Assembly: GCF_037042905.1 (NCBI RefSeq)
Contig: NC_087251.1
Coordinates: 40,612,001-40,676,000 of the forward strand
From: Lytechinus pictus
Lineage: Eukaryota
DNA length: 64,000 bases
Direction: 5' to 3'
A program made the position numbers and the translations under genes. Shown here in pieces: positions 24,009 through 64,000 of this stretch (the stretch's first letter is position 1; the number at the start of each line of letters is the position of its first letter). Below the pieces are notes generated by a model, which made no database searches, had not been told where the DNA came from, and saw only the letters and a program-made list of their open reading frames with translations.

Positions 24009-24113
24009 TAGTATTAAACACGAATACAACAATGCTAAATGGTGATTGAAGTTGAATGAAAAGTAACAGAAAACGAATGCTAGCATATATAGTCCTGCCG
24101 AAAAGATCACACT

Positions 24114-27400: not shown

Positions 27401-28509
27401 TTCCTGCATTGCTGTCGTAACATGGTTCATTATTTATTGCAATTGTAGGGAAGTTGTAAAAGAGTCCTTTAATGCATTATTCTTGATTGTCAGTAAGACA
27501 AAATTTACTTTCAAATGGATTTTAACTTAATGTACAATCCTGTTTATTTGTTATTCAATAAATAATGTCCGACATTCCATCTTTGATGAATGTATTCATT
27601 TTGGGATCTGATTACAGTCTTGTTTGCATTCATTTTTAAAATTTCTCATATCGACTAGTTATTTATTTGACATTTAATAATGAAATTTGCTTTAAAAAAA
27701 CCAATAGCAATATTACCCCCCCCCCCCATCCTAGAAGATCCGTTCCGAAATGGCGCCGAAACAAACTTAACAACATGCGCATAACCGATCTTCAGTCTCC
27801 GTTCTTCATACTATAAACATAAAAAGAAGACCGAAGACGTTAAAAGGGACAGTTTTCTTAAAATCTGATGGTTCATGTTATTTGACTGAATAACTTAATC
27901 AAGAATTGATTGAATGTTCTCATTCGTTCGTTATAAATGTCGAATTGAATATTAGTCATCTTTGGTCTCTCGTCTACCGCTTCGGTCTTCCCCATTCGCG
28001 GTCTTCCGTCTTTGGTCAGATTCGGTCCTTGGTTTTGTGAACACCCAACGCCATGTGCACCCTTCATTACCCCTGCACCTTCCAAATACGTCTGAAGGGG
28101 AATGATCTTAATGGGCATCGGATCTATTCCCTTACATCCAAACTAGTCCTCTATTCTCTCATCGCGTTATGATAATGGCATCTAGGCTATTTCTTGACGC
28201 GTTTGTTTTTGTAAGGACAGCTAAGGATCTCATCACCAGTTCATCAGGGGATTGCATCCCAAGGAATATATACCGGAGGTTGGTTTTCTTTGTTTTCGAT
28301 CTTAGAGGTACGAGACAGAGATGAAGTCTCAGTTAAAGGTCGTTTTTATATGGGGACGCGTCATCTCTTATAGAAATAATGTACTTGTCAGAAGACGCGT
28401 GATTATGTATTTACTGGTATCCTATAATATTTATCAATATACATGATACAACCTCTCTCCTGATGGTTGTATTTTATCCACAAAGAGATAACATGTTGAA
28501 TCTGTCTCG

Positions 28510-29910
28510 ATGGTAAAGGTAATGGTCATGGTAACGCCAGTGGAGTAGTAATGATAATAGTGACGGTAATGGTCATGGTGTGGTAATGATGATAGTGATA
28601 GTAATGGTCATGGCAACGATAGTGTTGTGGTAATGATAATAGTGACGGTAATAGTCACGGTAACGGTAGTGTTGTGGTAATGGTACTAGTGACGGTAATG
28701 GTCATGGCAACGGTAGTGGTGTGGTAATTATAATAGTGATAGTAATGGTCATGGTAACGGTTGTGGTGTGGTAATGATTATAGTGACGGTAATAGTCATG
28801 GTAACGGTAGTGTTGTGGTAATGATAATAGTGATAGTAATGGTCACGGTAACGGTAGTGTTGTGGTAACGGTAATAGTGACGGTAATGGTCATGGTAACG
28901 GTTGTGGTGAGGTAATGATTATAGTGATAGTAATGGTCACGGTAACGGTAGTGTTGTGGTAATGGTACTAGTGACGGTAATGGTCATGGCAACGGTAGTG
29001 GTGTGGTAATGATAATAGTGATAGTAATGGTCATGGTAACGGTTGTGGTGTGGTAATGATTATAGTGACGGTAATAGTCATGGTAACGGTAGTGTTGTGG
29101 TAATGATTATAGTGATAGTAATGGTCACGGTAACGGTAGTGTTGTGGTAATGGTAATAGTGACGGTAATGGTCATGGTAACGGTTGTGGTGAGGTAATGA
29201 TTATAGTGACAGTAATGGTCACTGTAACGGTAGTGTTGTGGTAACGGTAATAGTGACGGTAATGGTCACGGTAACGGTGGTGTTGTGGTAATGATAATAA
29301 TGATAGTAATGTTCATGGTAACGGTAGTGGTGTGGATATGATAATAGTGATAGTAATGGTCACGGTAACGGTAGTGTTGGGGTAATGATAATAGTGACGG
29401 TAATAGTCATGGTAACGGTAGTGTTGTGGTAATGATAATAGTGATAGTAATGGTCACAGTAACGGTAGTGTTGTGGTAATGGTAATAGTGACGGTAATGG
29501 TCATGGTAACCGTTGTGGTGTGGTAATAATTATAGTGACAGCAATGGTCACGATAACGGTAGTGTTGTGGTAATGATAATAGTGACGGTAATGGTCATGG
29601 TAATGGTAGTGGTGTGGTAATGTTTATAGTGACGGTAATGGTCATGGTAACGGTAGTGGTTTGGTAATGATAATAGTGACGGTAATGGTCATAGTAACGG
29701 TAGTATTGTGGTAATGATAATAGTGACGGTAATGGTCATGGTAACGATAGTGTTGTGGTAATGGTCACGGTAACGGTAGTGTTGTTGTAATGATAATAGA
29801 GACGGAAGTGGTCATGGTAACGGTAGTGATGTGGTAATGATAATAGTGACAGTAATGGTCATGGTAACGGTAGTGGTGTGGTAATGATAATAGTGACAGT
29901 AACGGTTAAT
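28510..29910. repeat. 47-bp minisatellite, ~30 units, with 282-bp higher-order period
   Basis: Unit GTAATGGTCATGGTAACGGTAGTGTTGTGGTAATGATAATAGTGACG; variant marks recur at 282 bp. Confidence 0.9.
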
Positions 29911-30293
29911 TATAAATGGTATTTGCATGATATTAATGGTAATTGTAATAGTCATGAAGGTGTTAATGGTAATTGTAATGATAATGGTAACATGTAGTAT
30001 TGGAAATGGTAATAGTAATCGTAACGTTAATGATAATGGTAAGAATGACTATGTTTTTAACAAAAACATATATGCAGCCAAAGCTTAATTGCAGAATTTG
30101 GTACTAAGTAAATTCAATTAAATTCATTTCATTTATTTAATTCCGATAAAACATACATATATCATACACTTGCATGAACACCTATTTTAAACTTGAGCAA
30201 TGAAAAAAATAAAATATGATATACAATATAAGATTTTAAAAAGGTCACATCAGTATTGGAATAGGGTGGTCATAAAAACCAAATGGAATTGTC

Positions 30294-30532
30294 CACAGCA
30301 AAAACTGTGGTGTTAACCGGTGTACATAGAGGACCACACCAGTTATTTTACACCGGTGTTAAATTGACAGTATTAGTTTAACACCTACAGGTGTTATTAC
30401 AACACCTTTCGTTGTCACATCAACACCCTTTGGTATTATGTTCAATCCCTAGGGTGTAATTTTAACACCTCAGGGTGTGGTCCTCTATTAACACCGACTG
30501 GTGTCAGTTTTAACACCTCAGTTTTTACAGTG
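30294..30532. mobile_element. CAC..GTG (EnSpm/CACTA-like) MITE
   Basis: CACAGCAAAAACTGTGGTGTTAA / TTAACACCTCAGTTTTTACAGTG; repeated AACACC/GGTGTT. Confidence 0.7.
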
Positions 30533-31377
30533 TATAATTTGAATTTGAATGATAAGAACATGGATAAATCCTTAGGTAATACATAAATTTAAACGAGTCA
30601 TTGGGCAAATATAGTATGGAATGACAATGACGTTTGTAATGCGTTGTATTATAATAATAATAATAGGCATTGTGACTGATGGAAGGAATTATCATCGTTG
30701 TCAACAATAGGTTTTTAATCGACTGCAATGACGTCAACTACTAATAGTGCAAATGCGCTAAAAGAGCAAGAGACAATGTAAAAGGGTAAACGATACAAAT
30801 GGCATTTTTTAACCCATCCCACTGCAGTTCCGTCTTAAAACATCTTTCGTTTCCATGCATTTTCTTCTTACGCTGAATCTCGAGAGCCTTGAGTGCCCAT
30901 TATAAGAATTAAAGATTCTTAGACAAGTTCCTCTTAAAGGATTCTTTAGTTTCCCAAATTCGGCCTTTTCGCGAAAAGGCAAACACGGGGAGAGTGTTGG
31001 TTGTAAAACACTCCACTTTGCATTGATAAAATGAAGGTTGTCTGCTCGGTGAAGACGTGACAATAAAGAAAACTGCACTCATACAAGATACATGTATTTC
31101 GCTTGGGGTAGGAAGATTGAAATTATAGTCAATGTGATCTTATCAAATGAAGATTATAGTTATGACACTAATGAGAATGACTTTAGCAACGATAACATTA
31201 ATTGATTATCAAAATGACAATTATCATTGTAAATATCATCATAATTCATATCGTAATCATTATTTTTGTTGTTGATGTTGTTAATATCGTCATTTTATCA
31301 TACATTATGTAATTATCATTATTGTTATTATTGATAGTGGTAGTAAAATTAATGATAAAATCAGCAGAGCAGTAACA

Positions 31378-31394
31378 GTAGTAGTAGTAGAAGA

Positions 31395-31443
<49 letters not shown>

Positions 31444-31519
31444 ATATTAGTAGTAGTAGTAGCAGTAGTAGAAGTGATAGTAGTAGAAGTAGTAGTAATA
31501 GTAGTAGTAGTAGTAGTAT

Positions 31520-31596
<77 letters not shown>
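31378..31596. repeat. (TAG)n microsatellite
   Basis: Directly visible. Confidence 0.95.
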
Positions 31597-31729
31597 TGTT
31601 GTTGTTGTTGTTTTAGCTTATACGGCGCGTATCATTCAGTAGTGAATATTTGCGCCAAAATCACAATCCATAAAGTAATGTAATTTCGTAGGATTGGTTC
31701 AAATATTAATGAACATTTTACAAACCTTC

Positions 31730-31952
31730 ATTCTGAAACCGTGTATTACATAACAACGGAAAGTGGGGATGTGACATCATCAGCCCACCTAATGATTATT
31801 CATGACGACTGTTTCACAAAATATTGCTAACTTTAAAATTCAATAACTTTGTTATTTGTTATCCGATTTTGATGAAATTTTCGGCATTTTGCTCAGTGAA
31901 TTCTACTCTATTTATTAAGCTATTAATACTTTAAGCCCGGAACATCCATTTA
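31730..31952. mobile_element. Right half of Kolobok-like MITE K2
   Basis: Matches 50100-50297 (GTGGGGATGTGA..CATCAGCCCACCTAATG ... AGCCCGGA.CATCC). Confidence 0.65.
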
Positions 31953-32020
31953 ACTACTGCGTGGACAAAATGCATGCGCCAGACTCGTCTGTCACCATCC
32001 CCCCCCCCCCAAAAAAAAAA

Positions 32021-32876
32021 TTATCCCATGTAACATCCCTACTTCGTGATCTGCACTGGCTTTCAGTACGTCAGCGAATTAAATTCAAAATACTGTTGTT
32101 CACATTTCAGATAAAGCATGGCTCCCATCTCACTCCTAGCATTGAAATCACCCACCCACTACTACCAGGGAAGTGGAAGGAGGTTTCTGGTACTTGGGCT
32201 GGTACTAGACTTCGAAGTTATCATGACACCATGCTCCTCAGTCACCCACCTTTTAAAGGTCAAGTCCACCCCAGAAAAAAATAGAGAAAAATCAAACAAG
32301 CATTATGCTGAAAATTTCATCAAAATCGGATGTAAAATAAGAAAGTTATGACATTTTAAAGTTTCGCTTATTTTTCACAAAACAGTGAGATGCAAAACTC
32401 AGTGACATGCAAATGAGACAGTCGATGATGTCCCTCACTCACTATTTCTTTTGTTTTATATTGTTTGAACTATACAATATATCATTTTTTTACAGATTTG
32501 ACAATAAGGACCAACTTGATTGAACCATATAGTATTAAACAATGCTAATTGCACATGTTCAGGGAGGAATTAATCGTTGTTTCACACGACAACAGGGAGA
32601 AAATGGGAATATTTCATATTTCACATAATAAAATACGAAAGAAATAGTGAGTGATGTCATCAGTCTCCTCATTTGCATACCGACAAGGATGTGAATATAA
32701 CTGTTTTGTGAAACTATAAAATGTCATAACTTTCTTATTTTACATCCGATTTTGATGAACTTTTCAGTGTTATGCTTGTTGGATTTTTCTCTTTTTATTC
32801 GAATCAACTTTTTGTTGGGGTGGACTTGTCCTTTAACGAGGTGATCGTGCCTTTGTTAGTGCGGCCCCCAAACTTT
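32021..32876 (+). mobile_element. L2-clade LINE ORF2 C-terminal remnant, split by a MITE
   Basis: SHVTSLLRDLHWLSVRQRIKFKILLFTF before the MITE and RGDRAFVSAAPKL after it; both are characteristic L2 C-terminal motifs. Confidence 0.8.
32257..32832. mobile_element. Kolobok-like MITE K1, full length
   Basis: TTAA|AGGTCAAGTCCACCCCA ... TGGGGTGGACTTGTCCT|TTAA. Confidence 0.9.
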
Positions 32877-34760: not shown

Positions 34761-35683
34761 TGTATGTTTTGCTTTGATATTATGAATCATAAGTGTATAT
34801 GAGTGTAATATTTTAACTTGCTTTTCAGTCGACCGATGAAGAATCAATCCGAAACAGCCAAGGCGCAATATCAGTTTCTAATTTCGATTTACTTTCGAAG
34901 TGACATAGCGTGATCAGTTATGTTTGTTTCGGCGCTCTTTTATTTGCTCATAAGAATAGAGGATTTCAAGACACTGTTTTCTCTTATCTGCTCGAAACTT
35001 TGGAAGCGTACGTTTACAAAATAATTAAGATATTAGGTTTCACGGGCCTAATTACAACTGGCAGGCAAAAGATATTAATTCGAGCCAACCCATTCTCAAT
35101 ATTTAAATTTGATATTGCTGATTGACAAAAATGAATGAATATGACTGACAATCTAACACTGATTCTATAGGGAGGGTACCTACTGAAGTTCCTTTTTCCA
35201 AATTTGAAAGATATATCACCACTTTGGAACTATTTTTTTTTACTAGCGGAAGAATTAGGGCCATTTTACTCTCTCAGGTGATGAATTTGTGTTGTTGTTG
35301 TTGTTTTTATTTTGGGTTTTAAGGCGCGTATCATGCAGATATGAATATTTACGATGAATTTGATCTTGCCAGGAGTAGTCTTCATAAATGCCGATTTATT
35401 TTTAAAATGAGCCTGTCGAGGTACCCTATTATGATCAGATATGGAATCGCTGATGTGGTTTACGGTACACCATGTGAAGTGTTGTAGAAACAGTGGATAG
35501 GAGAAGAGAAGAAATTGATAGGCGAGAAAGTGGAGATTTGAGAGTAGAGTATTCTTTCTTGAAAGTAGTCCTGAAAAGGACTGTAAACCAAGAAAGATTG
35601 ATGAGTTGAGAACAGCTTGAGTAGTAGAGCTAGTGAGGAGATACTGGCTTGAGTCGGCGAGTAGAGATGATGAGTAGTAGAGA

Positions 35684-35726
35684 GACTCGACGTTTCGGGC
35701 AGGTTGACTGTCCGTCTTCAGGAGAC
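35684..35726 (-). ncRNA. Minimal hammerhead ribozyme motif (inverted copy)
   Basis: Reverse complement of 35769-35811. Confidence 0.65.
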
Positions 35727-35768
35727 TGTCTTCGGGCAGGTTGACTGTCCGTCTTCAGGAGACTGTCC

Positions 35769-35811
35769 GTCTCCTGAAGACGGACAGTCAACCTGCCCGA
35801 AACGTCGAGTC
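35769..35811 (+). ncRNA. Minimal type-I hammerhead ribozyme motif
   Basis: CTC-CTGAAGA-c-GGACAG tcaac CTGCCC-GAAAC-GTC-GAG: CUGANGA box, stem II, GAAA box, GUC site, short stem I. Confidence 0.65.
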
Positions 35812-36196
35812 TCTCTACTACTCATCATCTCTACTCGCCGACTCTACTCTCAAATCTCCACTTTCTCGCCTATCAATTTCTTCTCTTCTCCTATCCACTG
35901 TTTCTACAACACTTCACATGGTGTACCGTAAACCACATCAGCGATTGTACATACCACCATGCAAACCTTCAAACAACATCAGATATGGAATGTCAGACAT
36001 ATATCCTATCCACTGGTAGTAAACATTCAACCATCGAATTTCCTCCTTATTTTTTATGAATTTTTTTAAGTGCCACTTTAACACACGAGTCTATTATTTA
36101 GGCCTGTGATACCATTATCTCTGTGGCTCGAAATAGCGAGAGCGCCATCTGCCATGTAGTTTTAGAGAATTAGACTCGAATGCTGATTTTTGTTTT

Positions 36197-39843: not shown

Positions 39844-40035
39844 TATCAAGGAAAGTGTTGCTGCAACATGTTATTTGTTGTAGGTTTATAGTTGTAAGGT
39901 TTATAGTTGTAAACAGAAATTGTAGTATTAGACTGTGATTGTCAACTGGTATTCATGAAGTATCAACTTATAGACTGTTTCCAAATTATATAACCTATTC
40001 TCTTATTTTTAAACTAATTTTTATTTTATATTTCA

Positions 40036-40352
40036 AACACGGCTACTGTAAGGTTCATATAAACAGCATTGTGTAACATTATGAGTAACAATCTTTGCTC
40101 TGTCAGCAGTTGGCACACGACACAATGTGAAAACAAGAAATATTCGTTTGTCAGTAAATATTTACATTATTAATAATACATGTACACCCTTATAGCGAAA
40201 AGGATATATTTGTTGATAATGGTTGTTAGCGTAAAGTATTGACCCTTGACTAGAGATCGATTAACAGCAATTGATTCGTATGCAGGTTTATATTGATATA
40301 TATCACATGTCATGAAGTTCAACATGAAGCGCTCTTGATTTACTTCTTTTCT

Positions 40353-40384
<32 letters not shown>

Positions 40385-41028
40385 TCCTCCTTCTTCTTTT
40401 GGGGTCGTCAATGGGAGGGGGGGGGGGATCTATTCCTCGCTGGATTCGCTTATGTATAGACATTATTTTTTTAAGAAAAGAAGAGCTCTGGAAGAGAAAA
40501 GAAGAAAGATGGAAGAAAAAGAGCGAAGAAAATTGAAAGAATAAAAGACACGAAGAGAGAGGAGATTCAGATTCTCTCCAAACAGTGATATCATACCGAT
40601 CTACGTTGCGTTGAAGTATTAAATTACAAAAATATATATGAACCAAAATCATCAATACTGCATTTTGCCCCGGCATTTTGTTAGTCTGCAAAGTTTGAAT
40701 CTCTTTATTTTTGGAATCGCTCATTCAATTTTATTTTAATGATCGGTGATGCTCTTATTTAATTGTTATCATCTCAATAATCTTAAATTGAACCATCAAT
40801 TCCAGTGGATTATCATCTAATAATGATAACAATACTCTATCATACCACAATTATTCCAACCAAACCAACTCCGAACAGGTCAAACATTATGAACAAAACA
40901 AAGTGAAAATGAAACCTTTTTTTAGGAATTTAAATTGATAAGTGAAGATCTGTAACCTTTCCCAAATTTGTCTCGGTACATTGATTGATTCATTCATTCA
41001 TTATCATGCCCATCAGCAAAGTAAATAC
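40036..41028 (+). repeat. Local segmental duplication, copy B
   Basis: Collinear with 49097-50671 minus the K2 MITE. Confidence 0.85.
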
Positions 41029-41292
41029 ACACTAAGAAAAATAGGTTCCACTTTGCACCTTTAATGATATAGACCAAATGTCACACTGGGAGCACCTTTA
41101 AAGTGCAACTTTGTACCTTTTAAGAAAGGTGCAACTTTGCACCTCTCTGAAAGGTGCAAATTAGCACCATTAAGGTGCTTATTTGCACCTCAGGAGAAAT
41201 GCGAAGTTGTACCTGTCCAAAAAGGTACAAAGTTTCACCTTTAAGGTGGTCCCAATGTGACAACTGGTCTGCACCGTTAAAAGGTGCAAATT
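41029..41292. mobile_element. CACTA-like MITE fragment with AAAGGTGCAA/TTGCACCTTT repeats
   Basis: Starts (A)CACTAAGAAAAATAGG; multiple inverted GCACCTTT motifs. Confidence 0.55.
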
Positions 41293-42597
41293 AACTGACG
41301 GCCACGGATCCATTGCGGTTTTCCTATCGGGATGCCACCGTGCCTGGCCGTCCGCTTGGCCAATTTTTTTAGGTCGTCACGGAATTCTTCTGCTATGTAT
41401 AATTATAATCAGAGTCGGTGATTTCTAATTCTACCTTTATATCCGCAATAATCAATCGGCACAAGCAGGAAAGAAATGTTGGATCGTGTATAATGGGGTA
41501 AAGCCTTAAAACACACATCTATAATTGCAATATTAGGTTCCCCATATATAAGGATTTACAAAAAGTTTATTGAAACAGTTATTAAAATGACTATCTCTTC
41601 CCAGAACAATCATGGCAACCGTATCATGTTCATAAAATATACGAATTACGCATTTTTGTTTGATAATTCATAGACCCCTCAACATAATATACGATTTCTA
41701 CATAGTATATGTTCCCAGACCCTAGAAGCTCTCTACGACATTATTTAGGTGCAATTTCGCAAGCAATTTAAGTAGAGTTTTATTGCCATCACACGGGACG
41801 CAACTCATATACGCATACACAAATAAGAAAATGTATTTTCCATTGTCGAGTAGGTTGAACCTTGCGAGCATTTTGATAAGGATGAAGTATACATGACAAG
41901 AACCTAGACTATTCGTGAGGATCAAACTTGCACCCCCATCACTTTTTTTATCAACCTGTGCACGAGTCTAAAATATGAAATAAAAATTAGTTTAAAAATA
42001 AGTGGATAGGCTATATAATTTGGAAGCCATCTATAAGTTGATACTTCAGGAATACCAGTTGACAATCACCATGTAATACTGCAATTTTTGTTTACATCTA
42101 TAAACCTACAACAAATAACACGTGGCAGCGACACTTTCCTTGGTACAAAACAAATAAAACAAACCCCAAATGGCAACAAAGTGATTGCACGCCTATACGG
42201 TAAACTGTAATTCGTATTCGAATACAAAATGACTTACTGATACTTTACCATTGATTGATCTCAACTCCGATTGATTATCATTTAAATGGCAACGATAACA
42301 TAGCTCTATGAATGTGTTATATAATTAATTTGTTCTTTCTTTATTGAAGGTCAATCCATGTTTATTTTACGGCCCTATATTCTTTGGTAGATTGTTATAA
42401 GAGGGATAATGGAAGAACGGTAGAGAGATTGTGTTTCAGCCTTTATACCACTTCCATTTTTCATAAAATAAGCTTTTCACAGAACTTTTGTGACTTCTTT
42501 AACTTTATTGATTGCATTTCATTTTCATCACAAATATTGCATCAAATCTAATAACGTCGAAGATCACTGACGTTTCTAAATCAGACCATTACTCATA

Positions 42598-44214: not shown

Positions 44215-47144
44215 GGTTCTAGGACAACTACCCCCTGGACAATCACCCCCCGGACAACTACCCCCCGGACAATTACCCCCCGAGGACAATTACCCCCCGG
44301 ACAATTACCCCCCGGACAATTACCCCCCGAGGACAACTACCCCCCGAGGACAATTACCCCCCGGACAACTACCCCCCGGACAACTACCCCCCGGACAACT
44401 ACCCCCCGGACAACTACCCCCCGGACAATTACCCCCCGGACAATTACCCCCCGGACAATTACCCCCCGAGGACAACTACCCCCCGGACAACTACCCCCCG
44501 GACAATTACCCCCCAGACAATTACCTTCAGAAAATCCCCCCTTCTCTCCAGCATCAATGTTAGAATTAAGCGGGACCCATTGTAAGTTTTGGTCGGTGGC
44601 GCAGCTTTCCGAAATATTTTCTACTTCATCTTACGTGTATAACTTTTTCTTTCTCTTTTATCTATTGCTCTTTCTCCTGTTCTCTCACTTTCTTCTTTTT
44701 TCCTTTTTTGTTTAGCGGCGCCTTCTGCATCATGAAAAATGGGAGGGGGGGGGGGCTTGCACCCGAAACCTCCCGTTTGGCTATGCATATATACATCAGA
44801 AAATTTGTAAACTGGCCCTCATTCTAAGTTTTCATAGAACAATTGAACACGATGAGTCATAATAATCACAAATGCTGAATATTTTTGATTCGAACTGATC
44901 TGATCTTTTTGAATATTTATTTTGGGTTTAATTTCAGGTGAGAAATCAGGCAAATAGATAAATCGTTAAAAAAACACCTTTATAGGTAGAAATATTGAAA
45001 GTCGATAACGCAACTATGAACACTAACACTGTCAAGTAGACCTATTAATCTGTTTTTTTTAACAGTTCAACTAACAAGAAGCTAAGAATTATGAAACAAT
45101 TGGACTTTGGTGCACATTCCAGATTAAGATGTGGCTTTATAACTTAATACAGTAAGCTAAAAAACTTAAAGCAAAGATAATACACACAAGAACACCTTGT
45201 AAATTACAAGGTGTTTTTGTGTGTAGTATTCTTGGGTGAAAGCAATTAAACATTAAAGAAGGAAATTAAGTACCAAATTTACTAAATTGTAAACAATATG
45301 ACATATTCAAATACAGTGTTTTTTGTATACAAATTGACAATCATGATGGTAAACAATTCGTTTAAGGTGCATTTTAAGGACGGTTTGTAAGAATTTATAA
45401 AGAAGTAGGCCTATGCAAATCAAATAATGCGACCGCGCACCGTGAGCTGAAAATATTAATATTTAGACCATAAAACGGACATTTTACAGAGCACTTGAAA
45501 AATCAATTTGCAAATTTTCAAATAATGAAAGCTCGATATCCGAGATGAAATATGTTTTGTATATTGGCTTCGAAACTTGATATTTTAAGCTCCATATCAG
45601 CCTATATTGAGCAAGATATTAATCTCATCGAAAAAGCAATGCGAGCGCGAAGCGTGAACGGAAAATACTTGATATGCCGGTATGAAAATGGTGAATTTGA
45701 GCACTATCTAAAGCATTGTGTAGGGAAATTGTGAAGTAGATTTGGAAAGCACTTAATAAATGATGCGAGTGTGAAGCGCGAGCTGATATCTTCATTATTA
45801 TTTTGACCTAGGACCTGGACATTCTATAGGTCTAAGGACATTTTGTCATCATATGAAAATGATGACAACTTTCTTATTCCTCTTCCTGAGTGCGATATGA
45901 AACATATGAAACTGTGATATTGTCGATATTCTTTCCTGAAAAGGGACAATTTAGTCATTAAGAATTCATGAAAATTTTATTATCATATTTATTAATGTAT
46001 AAGCCTAAATGAGTGAGTAAAATGTGTTGATACTGAGGCCTGAAAACTTGATATTTTAAGCACTTTTGTAATCATGAATAGGATTTGTGAGTTGATATAT
46101 TTTTAACAAAAATGCGAGCGCAAATCGTATGTCGAAATTTTTGGTAAACTGTCATAAAAGGGGGGTTTTAAGTAGTTTGTTATATAATTTGGCAAATCAA
46201 ATAATGCGAGCGCACAGCGCAATTTGCAAGTTATATTCACACCATAAAACGAACATGAAACAGAGCACTTAAAAATCAGTTTGTAAATCAAACTAAATTA
46301 TGAATAATGTCCGAGCTGAAATATGCTTTGTAATATCAACTTCAAAACTTGACATTTTAAGCTACATATCAGCCTATTTAGCAAAATGTGTATCTCATCG
46401 AACAGGCTATGCGAGCCCGAAGCGCGAGCGAAAAAAATAATAAAGTGACATGAAATATATTTTTAAATCATTTTCCAAGTCATCCCCTGACCTTTTTTTT
46501 CACTCGTCTCCCTCTTATTTTAACTCTTATTTTTCCTCCTTTCTTTCCCCTTCTTTTTCTTTTTTTCTTTCCCCCTTTTTTTTCTTCATTTTTTTGCTCT
46601 GCCGATAGGGGGGGGGGGCGGGCCCCTCAACCCCTGGATCTGCCTATGGATGGAGCTCAATTTTACAGCTTTCTTACGGCGTACGTTTGATTCCAAGATA
46701 CTCGAGAATGCCTTGAGTACTTCTTACATCAAACGTATGGCCGACGTATGACTCTGTGCACTCCCTTTGTCTAGGGGTAATTGTCCGGGGGGTAGTTGTC
46801 CGGGGAGTAGTTGTCCGGGGGGTAGTTGTCCGGGGGGTAGTTGTCCGGGGGGTAGTTGTCCGGGGGGTAATTGTCCGGGGGGTAATTGTCCGGGGGGTAG
46901 TTGTCCGGGGGGTAGTTGTCCGGGGAGTAATTGTCCGGGGGGTAATTGTCCGGGGGGTAGTTGTCCGGGGGGTAGTTGTCCGGGGGGTAATTGTCCGGGG
47001 GGTAATTGTCCTCGGGGGGTAGTTGTCCTCAGGGGGTAATTGTCCGGGGGGTAATTGTCCGGGGGGTAATTGTCCTCGGGGGGTAATTGTCCGGGGGGTA
47101 GTTGTCCGGGGGGTGATTGTCCAGGGGGTAGTTGTCCTGATACC
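44215..47144. mobile_element. Mutator-like foldback element with 15-bp tandem-repeat TIRs
   Basis: Perfect 9-bp TSD CGCTCCGAT (44206-44214, 47145-47153); arms of (GGACAA(C/T)TACCCCCC)n at 44222-44525 and inverted at 46772-47138. Confidence 0.9.
45400..46647. mobile_element. hAT-like element Y fragment inside the MULE
   Basis: GCGAGCGCGAAGCGCGAGC-type motifs; ends CCCCTGGATCTGCCTATG like 57397. Confidence 0.7.
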
Positions 47145-47961: not shown

Positions 47962-48336
47962 CGCATACATTCGTAATTCCGAAGCTTCGTTATTCCGAAG
48001 GTTCGGATATTCCGAAGGTTCGTTATTCCGAAGGTTCATATTTCCGAAGGTTCGTAATTCCGAAGGTTCGTAAGTCCGAAAACGAAGTGAGGTTCGTAAT
48101 TCCGAAGGTTCGTTAATCCGAAAACGAAACGAGGTTCGAAATTCCGAAGGTTCGTTAGTCCGAAAAACGAAATGATTAACGAACCTTTTTTCGTTTTCGG
48201 ACTAACGAACCTTCGGAATAACGCCACAAATGTTCGGATTAACGAACCCTTTTACGTTTTCGGATTAACGAACATCGAGGTATAGGCAATTTACGTGTTT
48301 CGGAATTACGAACCTTCGGAATTACGAAGTGTAACC
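47962..48336. mobile_element. Mutator-like MITE with TTCCGAAGGTTCG repeat TIRs
   Basis: CGCATACATTCGTAATTCCGAAG ... CTTCGGAATTACGAAGTGTAACC; GCATTTAT direct repeat flanks. Confidence 0.85.
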
Positions 48337-52359: not shown

Positions 52360-52851
52360 GGTTACACTTCGTAATTCCGAAGGTTCGTAATTCCGAAGGT
52401 TCTTTATTCCGAAGGTTCGTAATTCCGAAACACGTAAATTGCCTATACCTCGATGTTCGTTAATCCGAAAACGTAAAAGGGTTCGTTAATCCGAACATTT
52501 GTGGCGTTATTCCGAAGGTTCGTTATTCCGAAGGTTCGATAATCCGAAAACGAATAAGGTACGTTGTTCCGAAGGTTCGTTAATCCGAAAACAAAATAAG
52601 GTTAGTTAATCATTTAGTTTTCGGACTAGCGAACCTTCGGAATTACGAACCTCATTTCTATTTCGGATTAACGAACCTTCGGACTTACGAACCTCACTTC
52701 GTTTTCGGACTAACGAACCTTCGGAATTACGAACCTCATTTCGTTTTCGGACTAACTAACCTTCGGAATTACGAACCTTCGGAATCATAACGAACCTTCG
52801 GAATATCCGAACCTTCGGAATAACGAAGCTTCGGAATTACGAATGTATGCG
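52360..52851. mobile_element. Mutator-like MITE (family of 47962-48336, opposite orientation)
   Basis: 9-bp TSD GAATTTGAC (52351-52359, 52852-52860). Confidence 0.85.
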
Positions 52852-53660
52852 GAATTTGACATCAGAGCATGCAATCTACCTTTTGGCCACCAAAATTACT
52901 TCAAATTGTCTGAAGCGTAGACTACCGATTCCAAGGCTCTGCTCGCACGTTTATATTCACATTGACAAACTATCATATAGGCCTACTATATACGCACCAC
53001 TTAATTGAATTAATAAAAGTCATTTAGGACTGGTAAAACCACCAACGTTTATCTAGCGGAGCAGTTGATGGTGAAGTCACAGACTACATGCGTTTGCCTT
53101 GCATTTTAGTTGTGGGAATATTAGACGGATTTTCCACCGTATTTCTGGCAGCTCTCATGTAACTCATTTTCAACATATACTATGTGCATTCTCTCAGGTA
53201 AATATAAAAGTTTATATTGATTTTTTTTAAGCATTACACCGTCATGACTGCTGAATGATCGTGAGAATTGTAGCTCCATGGTTGGATGAACCGTTCAGGT
53301 TCATTGTCCCATGACAAAAAGCTCACCGACAGCATATGCTGCAGTGTTGATATTTGTATAGAAAAACACGAATAAAAATCATTTTTGTCCTGTAGGTTGA
53401 ACTTACTGGCAGATACTACAGCCATGGATATTCTATTAGGACACGAGTCATTATACTCTGGTCCCAAGTTGACGAGATTTCCAAGACGTCGGAGTTGCAG
53501 TCACAATTGTCAATGCATTTTTTTTTACTATTGCTGACTCATGTACAAAAAATATATATATAGTCCATATATCGTGGTTGTTCGAGTAATTATTATACTT
53601 CACTCCGCATGCTACTACATCTGCAGATTGGAACCAGTTGAATGAAAAAGTTTATGTTCT

Positions 53661-56641
53661 TTAAAATTGCTTTTAAAGGCATTTTGATAATTTAAACGGA
53701 AATAAACGTGCGCTGACGTATATAACATCATAAACTTCAATGCAGCGTGTCCCACAAGCAGGGGCGGAAATCTCTCGCAAAGGGTAGGGGGGACACAGGG
53801 GTGGATTCAGCCTTCGCCAATAGGGCGGACGGAAATTTGTTTCAGCCATATTTTCCCCGATCGGCAGCTCGAAGATTATTTTTGTTTGTTTCTTTGAAGG
53901 GATAGTCCTCATTAGTCACTTCTGAGCTTCATTCTTATGAATTAATATACAATATCATAATCCTTATTTATATGGTGTGAGCGCGAAGCGCGAGCAAAAT
54001 TTTTGGAAATTTTATGTATTTTTTCCTAAAATTTGAACTGATTCTGGGAAATGTTTCTTATCCTGAAAAAGATGTGTATCCAACTTAATAATTACCACGA
54101 ACGCAAAGCGCGAGCAGAAATGAACTGATGGAAAAGATACCTGTTAAAGTAGCATTTAACAATCAAATAATGCGAGCGCGAAGCGCGAGCTGATTTTTTT
54201 TTACATTTTCACCTAAAGAATGGAAATTCTAAGCAATTTTTGTAACTCAAGCAGAAAAGGTATATAAATAAGCAATTAATGCGAGCGCGAAGCGCGAGCA
54301 GAAAATTTCGAGATTTAGTCCAATAATATTTACTGAACGAGACACTCTATTCATGTTTTGTAAATCCTGAAAAGGATGAGTATCAATAATGCGAGCGCAA
54401 AGTGCGAGCAGAAAATGTTTATATACGTTTTGAACTGGTACCTGTTGAAAAGGTACGTGGTAAGTACTGCTTGCACTTAGCCATGAAGGCGTTACATATT
54501 TCAACAATCTAAAAATGCGAACGCGAAGCGCGAGCTGAAAAATTTTGAACTTTCTAAAGAAAGAATGGAAAATTTTAATCAGTTTTTGTAATCGTGAACA
54601 GGATAGCTATATAATTTAACGATTGATGCGAGCGCGAAGCGCGAGCAGAAAAAAAAATTCGAGATTTAGACCTAAAAGTTCATGTTTTGTAAATCATCAA
54701 AAGGATGAGTAATATGGGGTCTTCCTACATTAATAATTCGAGCACAAAGCGCGAGCAGAAATTTTTTGATATTGTGATCGGAAACTGGATAATGATTTAA
54801 ATTAGAGAACAAGTTGAGTATCTGAATAAACATGCGCGAGCGTGTTTCATATTTAGACCTAGAATCTAGGCATTTTAAATACAACTTTAATGATGAAAAT
54901 CATGAAACTTTGATATTCCGATCTGAAAAAAAGAGTCAATTTCAGCTTTATATTTCACGCACTTTGTAGAAAAATTATAAGGTGGATATGGATCGCACTT
55001 AAAAATTATTATTACTTTGAGTTTTGACATAGGACCGGGACATCCTGACGACATGTCATCACATGAAAATGATGACTATCTTCCTATTCCTCTTGTTAAG
55101 CGCGAGATGAAACAAAAGGGACAATTTGATTATTAAATTAATATATTTATTAAAATTGCTTTTAAAGGCATTTTGATAATTTAAACGGAAATAAACGTGC
55201 GCTGACGTATATAACATCATAAACTTCAATGCAGCGTGTCCCACAAGCAGGGGCGGAAATCTCTCGCAAAGGGTAGGGGGGACACAGGGGTGGATTCAGC
55301 CTTCGCCAATAGGGCGGACGGAAATTTGTTTCAGCCATATTTTCCCCGATCGGCAGCTCGAAGATTATTTTTGTTTGTTTCTTTGAAGGGATAGTCCTCA
55401 TTAGTCACTTCTGAGCTTCATTCTTATGAATTAATATACAATATCATAATCCTTATTTATATGGTGTGAGCGCGAAGCGCGAGCAAAATTTTTGGAAATT
55501 TTATGTATTTTTTCCTAAAATTTGAACTGATTCTGGGAAATGTTTCTTATCCTGAAAAAGATGTGTATCCAACTTAATAATTACCACGAACGCAAAGCGC
55601 GAGCAGAAATGAACTGATGGAAAAGATACCTGTTAAAGTAGCATTTAACAATCAAATAATGCGAGCGCGAAGCGCGAGCTGATTTTTTTTTACATTTTCA
55701 CCTAAAGAATGGAAATTCTAAGCAATTTTTGTAACTCAAGCAGAAAAGGTATATAAATAAGCAATTAATGCGAGCGCGAAGCGCGAGCAGAAAATTTCGA
55801 GATTTAGTCCAATAATATTTACTGAACGAGACACTCTATTCATGTTTTGTAAATCCTGAAAAGGATGAGTATCAATAATGCGAGCGCAAAGTGCGAGCAG
55901 AAAATGTTTATATACGTTTTGAACTGGTACCTGTTGAAAAGGTACGTGGTAAGTACTGCTTGCACTTAGCCATGAAGGCGTTACATATTTCAACAATCTA
56001 AAAATGCGAACGCGAAGCGCGAGCTGAAAAATTTTGAACTTTCTAAAGAAAGAATGGAAAATTTTAATCAGTTTTTGTAATCGTGAACAGGATAGCTATA
56101 TAATTTAACGATTGATGCGAGCGCGAAGCGCGAGCAGAAAAAAAAAATCGAGATTTAGACCTAAAAGTTCATGTTTTGTAAATCATCAAAAGGATGAGTA
56201 ATATGGGGTCTTCCTACATTAATAATTCGAGCACAAAGCGCGAGCAGAAATTTTTTGATATTGTGATCGGAAACTGGATAATGATTTAAATTAGAGAACA
56301 AGTTGAGTATCTGAATAAACATGCGCGAGCGTGTTTCATATTTAGACCTAGAATCTAGGCATTTTAAATACAACTTTAATGATGAAAATCATGAAACTTT
56401 GATATTCCGATCTGAAAAAAGAGTCAATTTCAGCTTTATATTTCACGCACTTTGTAGAAAAATTATAAGGTGGATATGGATCGCACTTAAAAATTATTAT
56501 TACTTTGAGTTTTGACATAGGACCGGGACATCCTGACGACATGTCATCACATGAAAATGATGACTATCTTCCTATTCCTCTTGTTAAGCGCGAGATGAAA
56601 CAAAAGGGACAATTTGATTATTAAATTAATATATTTATTAA
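53661..56641. repeat. Near-identical tandem duplication, period 1488-1489 bp
   Basis: 53661-55153 matches 55150-56641; identical ORF pairs offset by 1489; TTAA at all three boundaries. Confidence 0.95.
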
Positions 56642-57623
56642 TGCCTAATGAGGGCGCGAAATCTGATGATATCATGGCATAAAAACTGGACATTTCACTT
56701 TTGAGATTATGAATAGGATGCATCAGTTAATATATTTTTAACCATTAATGCGAGCGCAAATCGCGAGCTAAAATTTTTGATAAACTGTCATGAAAGGGGA
56801 TTTTAAGTATTTTGTTGTATAATCAATATTGAAACATTCATATCACTCGCCAATCAGAATGCGGGCGTGCAGCGCGCTAGCTGATACGTCTTGACAATCA
56901 GACCTGAAGAGGGATATTTTGACAACTTTATGGAATACACGAAAATAATAGGTACCTGGTAAATCAAAATTTGCGAGCGCGCAGCGCAAGCAGCAAATGT
57001 TAACATTCAGACCATAAAACTGACATTTTACAGAGCACTTTTTAAAAACCAATTTGTAAATTGCACAAAATAATGAAAGTTTGATTTCCGAGGTGAAATA
57101 TGTTTTGTATGTTGACTTCCAAACTTGATATTCGAACTCCATATTGAACAAGATATGTAAATCACCTAACAGGCAATGCGAGCGCGAAGCGCGATCGAAA
57201 ATTTTATATAGTGGCACGAAAGATTCTTTTTATTTTCCAAGTCTTCCCCTCATCTGATTTTATGCACTCGTCGTCCTTCTCTTCTGTTTCTCCTTTCCCC
57301 TCCTTTTTTCCTTCCTTCTTTCTTTCCCTTTTTTCTTTTTTTGCTCCGCCAAGAGGGGGGGGGGGGCGGGCCCCTCGGCCCCCTGGATCCGCCTATGGGG
57401 ACAAGGGGCGGGAAAAATTGACAAGCAAAAAAAAGGTTATCATCGCCAAAGTAAGGTCATCTCGTCCCAAAATACATGTTTTATTTCGATTTAGAATGAT
57501 GTATTTCTTACCATCATATAAAAAGACCAAAATAGTAGGGGGGACATTTGATATTGTGTCCCCCCTACTATTTTGAGTAGGGGGGACACGTCCCTCCTGT
57601 CCCCCCTGGGATTTCCGCCCATG
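53759..57623. mobile_element. hAT-like non-autonomous element X (left end duplicated at 53759 and 55248)
   Basis: CAGGGGCGGAAATC / GATTTCCGCCCATG; 8-bp TSD CCCACAAG (53751-53758, 55240-55247, 57624-57631). Confidence 0.85.
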
Positions 57624-58091
57624 CCCACAAGATATGCTGATGGAACTCTAAATAAGTATAATGTGAAATTTCCATATCACGTTGTATATAATTTTATTAT
57701 CGTAAACAAGCATTTATTATACAACAGGCTTCACTTTTTATGCGATATGATCCATTGAATACATAGCTACGATCCTTCTTTTAGTACTCATCACAAAACC
57801 TTTTAATCCAAGTGCCGAATAAATAAAGTACGTAGTCCATTTACCATGTTTACGTCTTCCCTTGTTTTTTAATATCTATTTTAGATATTGGGCCGAAAAC
57901 TTACGGGCTCATACTTAGATTTTGAAAATGGAAGGTTTAAGAGATTGGCATGATATAACATAAAAATTATATCTAACGACATATATACATTTTTTAAAGC
58001 CATGATCTCATCTATTTGTCAGAGGGGATGAATGAAAAGGTCATCCCATGTCATGAATGAAAGAAAATCCTCGCAGATTTACGTCCGTGGC

Positions 58092-61000
58092 TATGAGGCG
58101 CCGAATGTACCAATATTATATAGAACAATTATTTGTTATATAATCATTATTTGTTAAATAATAACTATTATTTATATATAATTTACATTTTATTTGTAAA
58201 TAACTACTATTATATAAAATATCATTTCTAATTATTTATATATAATTCCAAGTAATACTTCATTATTTGTAAATAATAATAGTTCGACATTCCATTATTT
58301 ATAAATAATGATTATTTGTTTTTCATTATTTATAAATAATGATTATTTGTTTTTCATTATTTATAAATAGTGATTATTTGTTTTTCATTATTTATAAATA
58401 ATGATTATTTGTTTTTCATTATTTATATATAATGATTATTTGTTTTTCATTATTTACAAATAATGATTATTTGTTTTTCATTATTTATAAATAATGATTA
58501 TTTGTTTTTCATTATTTATAAATAATGATTATTTGTTTTTCATTATTTATAAATAATGATTATTTGTTTTTCATTATTTACAAATAATGATTATTTGTTT
58601 TTCATTATTTATAAATAATGATTATTTGTTTTTCATTATTTATAAATAATTTGTTGAGTTTTCCATTATTTATAAATAATGATTATTTGTTAAATAATGA
58701 AAACGTCTACTTCATTATTTATAAATAATTTTTTCGAGTGCACCATTATTCTCATTATTTATAAATAATCATTATTTAATGTTCGAGTTTTCCATTATTT
58801 ATAAATAAAGATTATTTGTTAAATAATGCCATTATTTATTAAATAATGCCATTATTTATTAAATAATGCCATTATTTATTAAATAATGCCATTATTTATT
58901 AAATAATGCCATTATTTATTAAATAATGGAAAACTCGCTATAACATGCAAATGTGGGACCGCCCATGATATGAATATTCATGATGCGATTTCCTTTTTCG
59001 TGATTTTTCTTCACAAATTTTTGTCCATTTCCTCTTCATAATGACATTTCTTGGAGCAATTTTCTAGGGATATGGTCTGATTGTAATATTCTTCATTTTC
59101 TATATAACTTCGTCTTCGTAGAAATATCAAAAAGTGTAATTTTATACGATTTTTCCTACAGTTCACAATCCCCATAGGCGCGCGTGTACGGTAGGGACAA
59201 CCGGTGAATCGACGGAGTGCTCTTCATCGAAATACTACGTTGGTTGGTCCCCGGAAGTGGCGGGCGGAATTTAGCCCGAATCCTCGATGGAAGTCGATCA
59301 AGTGCATATGAGCTGAGAGAGTGAAATATCAGTGTACTTGTACAGGCCCTTCTACTTTTTATAAATATTTCTTGTTGCTTTTTTGGTTAAGTTAATTTTC
59401 CTGGTGTAGAGATAAGTTTCAGTTCTAATAATGCACTTCAAATACATTTTGGAGTGTCTGTTTGAGGCGTTTGGGGCGATTTCACCCTGGCCCCAAAATG
59501 CTCGCAACGACAATACGGGGGCATGATGACCCCTAAATTTTTAAAAACTTATTTTTCTATTGAAAATTATCACAAAATTCACCAAAAGTGTGCACGAAAG
59601 CCTTCGTATTTCACTTTTAAAACTCCGAAAAGTGCCCAAATGACAAGCTTGGTCGCTTCGCTGTGTCGCTTTCAACTTGAGAACGTTTACGCGTCTGCTC
59701 CCCCCCGGCCCCCCTCCTCCGAAAGAAATTCTGTATACGGCCATGCTCTAAAGAGCCTGGCACATTGATTTATGTATACTTTCATTTTCATTATTTTTAT
59801 CTCATTATCAACATGGCCTTACGCAGAATTTTTTCCAGGGGGGCCGGGGCCGGAGCATGACGCGCGTAAACTTTCTCAAAAAAATCTTGAAAGCGAGACA
59901 GCCACGGGAACAAGCCCAAATGACAAGCTTTGTCGCTTCGCTGTCTCGCTTTCAACTTGAGAACGTTTACACGCGTCTGCCCCCACCCCCCGAAAGAAAT
60001 TATGTGAACGGCCATGCTCAAAAGAGCATATGGCACATTGATTTATATGTACTTTTCATTTTCATTATTTTTATCACATTATCATCATGGCCTTACACAG
60101 AATTTTTACCGGGGGGGGGGGGGGCAGCTAGGACGTGCGTAAAGTTTCTCAAATAAATCTTGAAAGCGAGACAGCGACGCGACCAAGCTCAAATGACAAG
60201 CTTGGTCGCTTCGCTTTCTCAAGATTTTTATGAGAAAGTTTACGCGCGTCCTGCTCCCCCCACCCCCCCCCCCCCCCCCCCCGAAAAAATTCTGCGTAAG
60301 GCCATGATGATAATGAGATAAAAATAATGAAAATGAAGTATACATAAATCAATGTGCCAGGCTCTTTAGAGCATGGCCGTATACAGAATTTCTTTCGGAG
60401 GAGGGGGGGGGGGGGAAGCAGACGCGTAAACGTTCTCAAGTTGAAAGCGACACAGCGAAGCGACCAAGCTTGTCATTTGGGCACTTTTTGGAGTTTTAAA
60501 AGTGAAATACGAAGGCTTTCGTGCACACTTTTGGTGAATTTTGTGATAATTTTCAATAGAAAAATAAGTTTTTAAAAAATTAGGAGTCATCATGCCCCCG
60601 TATTGTCGTTGCGAGCATTTTGGGGCCAGGCCCAGGGTGAAATCGCCCCAAACGCCTCAAACAGACACTCCAAAATGTATTTGAAGTGCATTATTAGAAC
60701 TGAAACTTATCTCTACACCAGGAAAAATTAACTTAACCAAAAAAGCAACAAGAAATATTTATAAAAAGTAGAAGGGCCTGTACAAGTACACTGATATTTC
60801 ACTCTCTCAGCTCATATGCACTTGATCGACTTCCATCGAGGATTCGGGCTAAATTCCGCCCGCCACTTCCGGGGACCAACCAACGTAGTATTTCGATGAA
60901 GAGCACTCCGTCGATTCACCGGTTGTCCCTACCGTACACGCGCGCCTATGGGGATTGTGAACTGTAGGAAAAATCGTATAAAATTACACTTTTTGATATT

Positions 61001-62022
61001 TCTACGAAGACGAAGTTATATAGAAAATGAAGAATATTACAATCAGACCATATCCCTAGAAAATTGCTTCAAGAAATGTCATTATGAAGAGGAAATGGAC
61101 AAAAATTTGTGAAGAAAAATCACGAAAAAGGAAATCGCATCATGAATATTCATATCATGGGCGGTCCCACATTTGCATGTTATAGCGAGTTTTCCATTAT
61201 TTAATAAATAATGGCATTATTTAATAAATAATGGCATTATTTAATAAATAATGGCATTATTTAACAAATAATCTTTATTTATAAATAATGGAAAACTCGA
61301 ACATTAAATAATGATTATTTATAAATAATGAGAATAATGGTGCACTCGAAAAAAATTATTTATAAATAATGAAGTAGACGTTTTCATTATTTAACAAATA
61401 ATCATTATTTATAAATAATGGAAAACTCAACAAATTATTTATAAATAATGAAAAACAAATAATCATTATTTATAAATAATGGAAAACTCAACAAATTATT
61501 TATAAATAATGAAAAACAAATAATCATTATTTATAAATAATGAAAAACAAATAATCATTATTTGTAAATAATGAAAAACAAATAATCATTATTTATAAAT
61601 AATGAAAAACAAATAATCATTATTTATAAATAATGAAAAACAAATAATCATTATTTATAAATAATGAAAAACAAATAATCATTATTTGTAAATAATGAAA
61701 AACAAATAATCATTATTTGTAAATAATGAAAAACAAATAATCATTATTTATAAATAATGAAAAACAAATAATCATTATTTATAAATAATGAAAAACAAAT
61801 AATCATTATTTATAAATAATGGAATGTCGAACTATTATTATTTACAAATAATGAAGTATTACTTGGAATTATATATAAATAATTAGAAATGATATTTTAT
61901 ATAATAGTAGTTATTTACAAATAAAATGTAAATTATATATAAATAATAGTTATTATTTAACAAATAATGATTATATAACAAATAATTGTTCTATATAATA
62001 TTGGTACATTCGGCGCCTCGTA
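58092..62022. mobile_element. IS3EU-like non-autonomous foldback element with ~1.8-kb TIRs
   Basis: TATGAGGCGCCGAATGTACC ... GGTACATTCGGCGCCTCGTA; 6-bp TSD CGTGGC (58086-58091, 62023-62028); arms ~58092-59900 and ~60205-62022. Confidence 0.8.
58292..58930. repeat. 31-bp and 20-bp AT-rich tandem arrays in the left TIR (mirrored at 61190-61822)
   Basis: (CATTATTTATAAATAATGATTATTTGTTTTT)n and (ATTATTTATTAAATAATGCC)n. Confidence 0.9.
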
Positions 62023-64000
62023 CGTGGCTGAACGTGAAAAGATATAATTTGCACAGAATCAACAAATAACAAGTCGTGTTAGCTGAGCCCGACTACATAA
62101 TATGTACACATATTACTTAATACAAAACTTGTCGGATGGAGAGGTTTCCTGGTGTGAAATGAAAAAAAAAAAATCATATTCTTGTGATTATTGGACAACA
62201 TCACATAAAGTTTCAGCAAGTTATTGAAAATTAATTGTAGATCATGTAGATTATACGGGTGTAAGATTTAAACAATATATTATGATTTCAATATTGTACC
62301 CATCTATAGATGGTCATTAGCGTTTTTGGACACGCTGTATTTACGTGGTTCTCCTGTATAAGCGGGGGTGGGGGCTACTGTACGTATAGGGAGAGGTGGG
62401 ATGGGGGAGGAGGCTTCATGACAAATGGTCAGTTGAATATTTAAAATTCCAAGCGGGATGATATAGGCCCTCTACCCGAAGAATGCTATTGATGTAAGGA
62501 ATTTCATTATTTCATCTTCATATCATTTTCATTTAAGTTATTCTCCCTAAATCAATCAAAATACAAAACATATAACTTATTCTAAATGATTACAATAAAT
62601 GTAGACAAAAAAGAAATACAATCATGAGCGTTATACCCCGCATTATACATTCAAAGTGGAGAGACCTAAAGTACAGCAAAAGCATGTTTTGAATTGCCCA
62701 TTGACAGATAAGAATTTAACTGCACAATCATTGACAACTGAAAAAAAATAGAGCAGAGCTCGGAGAAAGCATGGAGGTAGAAAGAAACAGTAATGCACAA
62801 GGACGAAAATAAAAAGAGTGGTACAAAACAGAAGGACACACAGGTTTCTAGAGGGAGAGGGTGGGAGGGAGGGAGGGAGGAGGGGAGGGAGGGGTGGTGC
62901 AAATTAAAGCTGAAAGTAAAAAGAGGAATACCGCATGATGATGGAATCATCAAGGCCCTGTATCACTCATTATAGTAGTTCGATTAGGCATAGAGTTGTA
63001 AGTCTAAAAGCCTAAAAAGTCAATCTTAGATAATTATCAATATAAGCATAGGCTTATGTCACATCATACGGTTAACATTTATGAAGTGAAACATGCTCTT
63101 AAAAAAATATATGAATCTTTTAATCCACAGCCCAAATGAATCTTAATCGTATTAATTCTTGGAATGAAGATATATCTTTCAGATCGACTATTAGTATTGG
63201 ATGTATTCATATGGTATTAAAAAGGATTTCGACATTCTTTTTTCAATACTTTGAATTTTTCTATCCTCATTTTGCCATCCCCATTTACACGATTTACCCC
63301 CTCCTTCTCCTTTCTTCCCCCCCCCCCCGCTCTTCCCCTGTCCCTCACTCTCTCTTTAAACATGCACGGTAAAGAAACATAAAAGCAGTCTTCATCAACC
63401 CACTTACCATAATCGACCGATCCTGAACGTGTCCGTTCATATAAGTCACTCTTTGCTAACACCTTACAATGTTATGCTATCTTTAGATTACCATGACAAC
63501 AACCTTCGTCATACTTTTCAACCTGTAAGATGACGACATTCACATTGTGGTCATGTGCAAGGTTCCGAATTGTTTTATTAGCCATCATGTCTCCTCTGTT
63601 TATATCTTGCTCAATGTCATTTGCTTGATTGGGACAGTCTTTTTTTATCGAAAGAATACAGGTTTAGGGCCTAAAGCCTGTAAGATGAATATACAATGTA
63701 CAGGGGGCACTATATATTTTGATAGGGGCAAGACGACCCAAACAAGACACCATTTGTTTTGTTTTTTTGTGTTTTTATTTATTTCATTATCGAATATAAG
63801 GGGTAGAATACAGTGCGTATAACTAGTTGATACTTGGGCTTAGGTCTTATCAATCAGATTAAAGTATAAATTGTTGACAGAGTTTCACACTTTATTGGAA
63901 AGCTCGCGGAGACCTGTTTCTGTTATTTTCACGTTGCATGTGTAAGGGAAAAGGTGAAAAAAAAACCGAACTTATCTTGCTGTACATTTTTCAATTTATT

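Follow-up and report, generated by a model that had tools for sequence, protein, structure and literature searches.

Foldback elements, i.e., transposons with very long inverted arms, have been known for decades, sea urchins included. According to the account in PMC4079207, FB and the sea-urchin TU elements are mentioned as foldbacks; most foldbacks seem to be of the Mutator type, exceptions exist, and a sea-urchin case is cited. The subject of this work is a foldback element of 3931 bp, located at 58092-62022 of a 64,000-nucleotide stretch of the sea urchin Lytechinus pictus (NC_087251.1, 40,612,001 to 40,676,000, forward strand; assembly GCF_037042905.1), the whole of which is called the window hereafter. 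The element represents a tidy form of these long-known transposons, not a new kind, and its structure alone is no surprise. It can be regarded with fair confidence as a non-autonomous foldback transposon of a dispersed family; the transposase acting on it in trans is likely an integrase-like DDE enzyme of the IS3EU/GingerRoot group.

IS3EU has been called poorly characterised (PMC11934779, PMC8232023). Complete IS3EU families are described as always having TA..TA ends and usually 6-bp duplications, and GingerRoot is counted as the same group; 17 of the 45 IS3EU families in Repbase are autonomous (PMC10045372). In GingerRoot, TA..TA ends were reported for 72 of 77 copies, together with inverted repeats of 100-150 bp and GC-rich 6-bp duplications (PMC6839031). 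The IS3EU ends of rust fungi read TAYGG..CCRTA (PMC12730594). An active relative, REP9/Styx of Zymoseptoria, has 43-bp repeats, and 33 of its 36 copies are flanked by 6-bp duplications; a defective copy of it is mobilised in trans (PMC8232023, PMC10853768). An IS3EU-like repeat with internal 182-bp units was described in Hydractinia (PMC11934779). In the literature search, no IS3EU or GingerRoot foldback was found described, and Repbase may already hold such families. One paper of the search results names both the group and foldbacks, but separately (PMC8268682).

Very long inverted arms are known from Tetris (up to 1735 bp, PMC4079207) and Galileo (up to 1250 bp, PMC3573991). The element has the same layout: tandem repeats in the outer domain, then an inner domain and a middle without coding sequence, with the repeat number differing from arm to arm. 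In Galileo, the number of tandem repeats varies between both arms, and the repeats contain secondary transposase sites (PMC3573991). In contrast to Tetris, which is of the Mutator type with 8-10-bp duplications, and to Galileo of the P superfamily, the element has a 6-bp duplication and TA..TA ends. It shares these two features with IS3EU and GingerRoot (TAY in the element), as well as the terminal inverted repeats, and non-autonomous families are known in that group; the target at the one site available is GC-rich. Unlike in IS3EU and GingerRoot, whose described repeats measure about 30-150 bp, the arms are 1.8 kb long with internal arrays, and no gene or captured gene fragment was detected. 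If the assignment is true, IS3EU/GingerRoot can adopt the foldback form, and a gene-less copy built of ends only shows what an IS3EU transposase must recognise.

Extent and anatomy of the element

The inverted repeat breaks off precisely at TAT…/…GTA, and the hexamer CGTGGC lies directly outside either end. The direct repeat thus abuts the inverted repeat exactly; the earlier note on this DNA likewise gave these ends and the duplicated CGTGGC. The extent given there, 58086..62028, designates the same element; its span takes in both CGTGGC copies. Among 20 symmetric boundaries tried, this is the single one with a direct repeat of at least six letters at the outer end of the inverted repeat. The boundary test returned another 6-bp match 11 bases within the arms, which is produced by an internal palindrome, and moving the boundary inward by 2 leaves a TA direct repeat. 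The longest flanking direct repeat is 6 bp with symmetric ends and 7 bp with one asymmetric choice. Two random 6-mers from the window agree by chance with a probability of 5.3e-4. Five of the six letters of CGTGGC are G or C, a composition shared by 4.4% of the window 6-mers, although this concerns one site only. The window has a GC content of 30-43% (2-kb bins) and is dense in interspersed and tandem repeats. In the rest of it there is no second copy of the element, the sole outside match being a 23-base C run.

The element is nearly all inverted repeat, as predicted from its letters, with the arms making up 92% of its length. Aligned with the reverse complement of the right arm, the left arm gives 1741 matches, 21 substitutions, and 10 gap events, i.e., 98.8% likeness, and the expectation of two near-identical arms of about 1.8 kb is borne out. 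The structural class of foldback elements is recognisable in all parts (Table 1): long inverted arms, tandem outer and unique inner domains, and a non-coding middle.

Table 1 Features of the foldback element (positions in the window)
Feature	Positions	Strand	Basis
CGTGGC, left copy; the 6-bp direct repeat is a likely target-site duplication	58086..58091	+	sequence
Left arm (terminal inverted repeat), 1805 bp, starting TATGAGGCGCC	58092..59896	+	alignment
Terminal domain, 198 bp; first 11 bases GC-rich, remainder 17% GC; 197/198 identical to the right arm	58092..58289	+	
Outer domain: eleven 31-bp units, related 30-49-bp units, four 20-bp units, each containing CATTATTTA(T)TAAATAATG as a palindrome; predicted array for transposase binding	58290..58930	+	function by analogy with Galileo
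Unique inner domain, non-coding, about 700 bp	58931..59633	+	
Innermost part of the left arm: first 273-bp unit, composed of the half modules R0 and L1 around the 66-bp spacer S0	59634..59896	+	
Centre, 314 bp: extra tandem unit R1, S1, L2 (87-94% like the arm's unit), closing in an 11-bp stem with 9-nt loop at 60180-60210	59897..60210	+	
Switch point: forward R-type and inverted L-type halves share the five letters TCGCT; likely interior-loss junction	60211..60215	.	
Right arm, 1812 bp, repeating the left arm in inverted orientation; its 31-, 30-, and 20-bp units differ from those of the left arm in number and order; ending GGCGCCTCGTA	60211..62022	-	alignment
Right copy of the direct repeat CGTGGC	62023..62028	+	sequence

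The outer domain has a GC content of 10-17%. Within the window, its two-half motif is confined to the arms, with 22 occurrences in the left one and 23 in the right one. Between the arms, the 31-bp array is 98.1% identical. The arms differ, nonetheless, by whole units. In the right arm, an extra 30-bp unit splits the 31-bp series, variants are reordered, and there are two 20-bp units; among the gaps between the arms are whole units of 30, 40, or 6 bp.

The inner domain is 99.4% alike across the arms, with 4 substitutions and 2 gaps. It contains a CpG-dense stretch near 59100-59300 with 18 CpG per 200 bp, whereas at least 15 were counted in 8 of 290 background windows. Within this stretch lie CCGGAAGT at 59251, found nowhere else in the window apart from the mirrored stretch, and GGGCGG at 59262. 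Both are promoter words, and the inner domain may hold a putative promoter. The CpG-dense stretch is mirrored near 60820-61010, and a putative promoter, if it is one, would occur twice in opposite directions.

A dispersed family of ends in public contigs

Of 24 sequencing runs, 15 hold part of the region 57000-63000 and none holds half of it. Copies of the arm end were sought in four of the runs (X1, X3, X5, and X9), whose contigs were placed on 871 bases (61830-62700) at 85% likeness. One of 18.7 million records was placed for X1, 207 of 7.3 million for X3, 212 of 6.6 million for X5, and 73 of 6.1 million for X9. In each of X3, X5, and X9, at least 10 contigs depart from the window at 62019 after …GGCGCCTC, continuing with ATA and then with mixed letters (agreement 0.53-0.56). 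Further contigs depart at 62023 (at least 4 in X3, 8 in X5, and 3 in X9), and at least 4 contigs of X3 and 8 of X5 depart at 62008, where a variant spacing stands ahead of the common GGCGCCTCATA. Since contigs leave the arm end into mixed sequence, the family end can be given as TATGAGGCGCC joined to many flanks. The single contig of X1 (organism A) is identical to the window in 189 of 190 bases at 61830-62019 and then runs through ATA into a different flank; it thus represents a near-identical end at a second site.

The element therefore belongs to a dispersed family. Together with the anatomy, the same end at many flanks upholds the claim of the earlier note that this is a real non-autonomous element of the foldback type. 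The summed depth just inside the end (61980-62009) is 14,232 in X3 and 9,185 in X5, while the flank has about 58 and 42; this contrast is a hint of many copies and gives no copy number. The duplications of other copies cannot be paired from consensus loose ends. Contigs bridging the right junction, or an empty site, numbered zero among the matches listed in X3, X5, and X9 (over all runs, 19 of 204 loose ends and 25 of 513 pieces), and this is not counted as evidence.

The contigs of X3, X5, and X9 (organism C) have common differences from the window in the arm, e.g., at 61892, where at least 31 contigs of X3 and 22 of X5 do so at whole depth. In the flank, 16-22 letters differ in 217-287, as would be expected if organism C were a close relative. 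The X1 contig is nearer to the window's arm end than typical organism C contigs are; it may stem from the same species as the window, from admixture, or from a transfer between species. No X1 contig was placed on the flank of the window copy, which would fit a different species with horizontal transfer, a low-level admixture, or the filtering of short records.

Two ideas on the history of single letters were given up. It had been considered that the G at the right end is ancestral and the T at the left end a product of CpG decay, but most loose ends among the matches listed read ATA. Likewise, a C shared by both arms at 61961 was rejected as proof of recent conversion, as some contigs of X3, X5, and X9 carry C too. 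Neither the end pattern nor the 31-bp-array pattern gave a match in metagenome contigs. Two pattern matches in viral contigs (L001 and L002) cover about 20 bases only, with E 0.48 or worse at the end, and were set aside as chance.

Assignment to a superfamily

The assignment to IS3EU, which draws on the end signature and the duplication at one site, is provisional and quite probable. TA…TA termini are present in the window copy as TAT…GTA, and ATA precedes the mixed flanks in X1, X3, X5, and X9. The 6-bp duplication is present at the window copy, and so are terminal inverted repeats, though far longer than described. The ends do not read TG…CA as in Ginger1 and Ginger2, and the 8-10-bp duplication of Mutator-type foldbacks (Tetris, FB) was not found. 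TU elements have 8-bp duplications. Polinton/Maverick-derived elements and hAT6 share the 6-bp duplication with the element; the inverted repeats of Polintons are long, but their ends start with AG, and those of Ginger with TG (PMC6839031), whereas the element begins with TA.

Several points weigh against the assignment. The length of the duplication is known from a single site, no transposase has been linked to these ends, and the longer parent proposed below was not seen. IS3EU and GingerRoot have been described with short inverted repeats, measuring over 30 bp, 43 bp, or 100-150 bp, not 1.8 kb. Duplications of 6 bp are also made by hAT6 (PMC12730594). Moreover, another element of the window, at 39844-42145, has TA..TA ends without a 6-bp repeat, so that TA..TA alone proves little. 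The membership claimed by the earlier note is supported as far as TA..TA ends and a 6-bp repeat at one site fit the published signature; the active transposase that the note expected elsewhere is putative.

A different superfamily that duplicates 6 bp could have mobilised the same foldback element; hAT6 is the most plausible of these, and an unclassified superfamily is another candidate. The third terminal base of the element is a pyrimidine (T or C), whereas in hAT ends it is usually a purine. The existence of hAT6 families with the right duplication length (PMC12730594) and the lack of a transposase linked to the ends speak for such an origin; besides, foldbacks have arisen within several superfamilies, and the length of the arms is of little use for classification (PMC4079207, PMC3573991). 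It is nevertheless rather improbable, as TA..TA with 6 bp is the stated signature of IS3EU (PMC10045372), and neither the AG start of Polintons nor the TG start of Ginger elements fits (PMC6839031). A foldback of the Tc1/mariner type or similar, which would start at 58094 and duplicate only TA, is a further reading that we consider very unlikely. The direct repeat TA obtained by the shift of 2, the TA-ended element at 39844-42145, and the conserved TA in the contig loose ends, which fits a TA duplication equally, would agree with it, but the exact 6-bp repeat outside both TAs would then have to be a coincidence at the chance rate given above.

As for recent mobility, the perfect duplication and the end found at another site with 189 of 190 bases identical argue for the earlier claim. 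The likeness of the arms, in contrast, does not date the insertion; it dates only the last homogenisation.

Centre, switch point and origin of the palindrome

On its inner side, the arm closes with the 273-bp unit, which consists of two halves (R and L) of a self-complementary module of about 205 bp and the 66-bp spacer S. Along the element, the modules are ordered R0 S0 L1, then R1 S1 L2, the start of R, and then the inverted L' S' R'. The centre of about 300 bp, which had been described as made of arm sub-repeats, is accordingly one further such unit. The right-arm modules agree with the first unit in 110/110 (R), 64/65 (S), and 67/69 positions (L, outside a G run), and with the second, adjacent unit in 95/101, 60/65, and 62/68. 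As they match the first unit better, the homogenisation of the arms is younger than the duplication of the extra unit. Where the arms are 99.4% alike, the likeness of the neighbouring tandem unit is only 87-94%. Relatives of the centre module were not found elsewhere in the window (nhmmer, two matches only, E 3.8 and 8.1).

At the switch point, 60187-60215 corresponds to a forward R half at 28 of 29 positions, and the sequence from 60211 onward to an inverted L half at 41 of 43; the two overlap in TCGCT. The R half of the left arm aligns with the plus strand of the right arm's inner end with 95 matches, 14 substitutions, and 6 gaps. Because each module half resembles the reverse complement of the other half, the inverted arms present each other with a direct repeat. 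From this arrangement, the interior was likely lost through recombination within the self-complementary module. A longer parent would have carried such a module closing both arms, and annealing between the arms at the module would have removed the interior, leaving the junction at 60211-60215. The centre would in that case preserve a legible trace of the way in which an interior disappears. Afterwards, pairing between the arms may have maintained their likeness through conversion, and the short arrays would slip separately in each arm.

For mobilisation, the transposase is proposed to bind the terminal TAYGAGGCGCC and, cooperatively, the arrays of 18-20-bp palindromes below each end. The role given to the arrays is suggested by the secondary transposase sites in the Galileo tandem repeats (PMC3573991). 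The transposase would cut at TA and join the ends to the target with a 6-bp stagger, the repair of which would create the two CGTGGC copies. It may even be that IS3EU/GingerRoot formed a foldback line of its own apart from Mutator and P, with interior loss in one step via the module and the palindrome arrays as IS3EU binding sites. This wider proposal is tentative, and we would sooner doubt than assert it; if true, the element is a minimal natural substrate for IS3EU end recognition.

The mirror symmetry could also have arisen by copying one end onto the other, through template switching or fold-back priming at the central hairpin, which would have lengthened short inverted repeats and is compatible with IS3EU. 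The 11-bp stem and 9-nt loop adjoin the switch point. For Galileo, template switching of this sort has been proposed, and internal sequence is described as having been recruited into longer arms (PMC3573991). However, a plain fold-back should mirror the nearest unit, and the right-arm modules fit the first unit better than the second, so that a copying origin needs the added later loss of one unit. This origin therefore seems somewhat unlikely. Still more remote is an artefact of assembly or of read fold-back, which we find barely credible. As a whole, the element was examined in the assembly, and fold-back artefacts of long reads have been reported (bioRxiv 10.1101/2025.07.15.664946). Nevertheless, alignment of the arms shows 21 substitutions and 10 gaps, whole repeat units among them, the flanks are unlike and unmirrored and carry the direct repeat, and the same end occurs in independent runs at other sites.

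Coding content and secondary structure

The earlier note reported no open reading frame in the element, and the searches agree with it, as no Pfam or Rfam family was recognised there. None of its 21 stop-to-stop frames of at least 50 aa (the longest has 134 aa) reached the Pfam cut-off, and there was no Rfam match at the gathering score. The Pfam set comprised 41 frames, i.e., these 21 and 20 of the 31 frames of at least 110 aa elsewhere in the window, from which 10 simple-repeat frames and one duplicate had been excluded. The cut-off was reached by none of the 41, with weak matches in seven. A 76-aa frame of the inner domain was compared with longer proteins in one protein search, and none of 26 candidates matched at E 0.01, which is weak evidence. 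The lack of a transposase gene in this copy would be expected of a non-autonomous family.

The central 921 bases fold as a single strand at -421.5 kcal/mol (z -58), and none of 20 shuffles was as good. Given this energy, a hairpin in single-stranded DNA or in a read-through transcript is plausible, and double-stranded RNA is possible, provided that the element is transcribed. Extrusion of a cruciform by the whole element, also raised in the earlier note, has lost ground. In yeast, breakage and fork block are reported to drop sharply with spacers over about 8 bp, breakage being down by 80% at a 9-bp spacer (PMC8053094). The matched arms lie more than 300 bp apart, far over this limit, so that a whole-element cruciform is unlikely. 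Small cruciforms are possible, judging from the letters, at 24 AT-rich palindromes of 16-20 bp.

Other repeats in the window

The scan of the window for further TA..TA elements with 6-bp repeats returned a candidate at 39872-42117, which was rejected as its repeat is an internal palindrome. The true ends are those of the longer element at 39844-42145, which lacks a 6-bp repeat. This is an older element with inverted repeats of about 200 bp, ends reading TAYCAAGG…CCTTGRTA, and nested repeats, and it is likely of the TA-duplication type. The remaining matches lay in simple repeats or inside the element, apart from a 17.9-kb pair at 14924-32797.

A second foldback is located at 44215-47144. Its arms consist of 15-bp tandem units (GGACAATTACCCCCC), its ends read GGTTCTA…/GGTATCA…, and it has a perfect 9-bp direct repeat, CGCTCCGAT; it looks to be of the Mutator type. 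Small TACA…TGTA foldbacks of 16- and 42-bp units are found at 47966-48333 and 52363-52847. The flanks of the former match in five of six letters (ATCGCA/ACCGCA), and the latter has no flanking match. At 35445-35946, a perfect 106-bp inverted repeat flanks tandem units of 18-37 bp, and a duplication at its outer ends was not found. Just left of the element, at 53653-56641, there is a 1.5-kb tandem duplication of 99.7% identity, which is either very recent or an assembly duplicate. Finally, a 1.5-kb array of 47-bp units with a strong G skew occupies 28510-30042.

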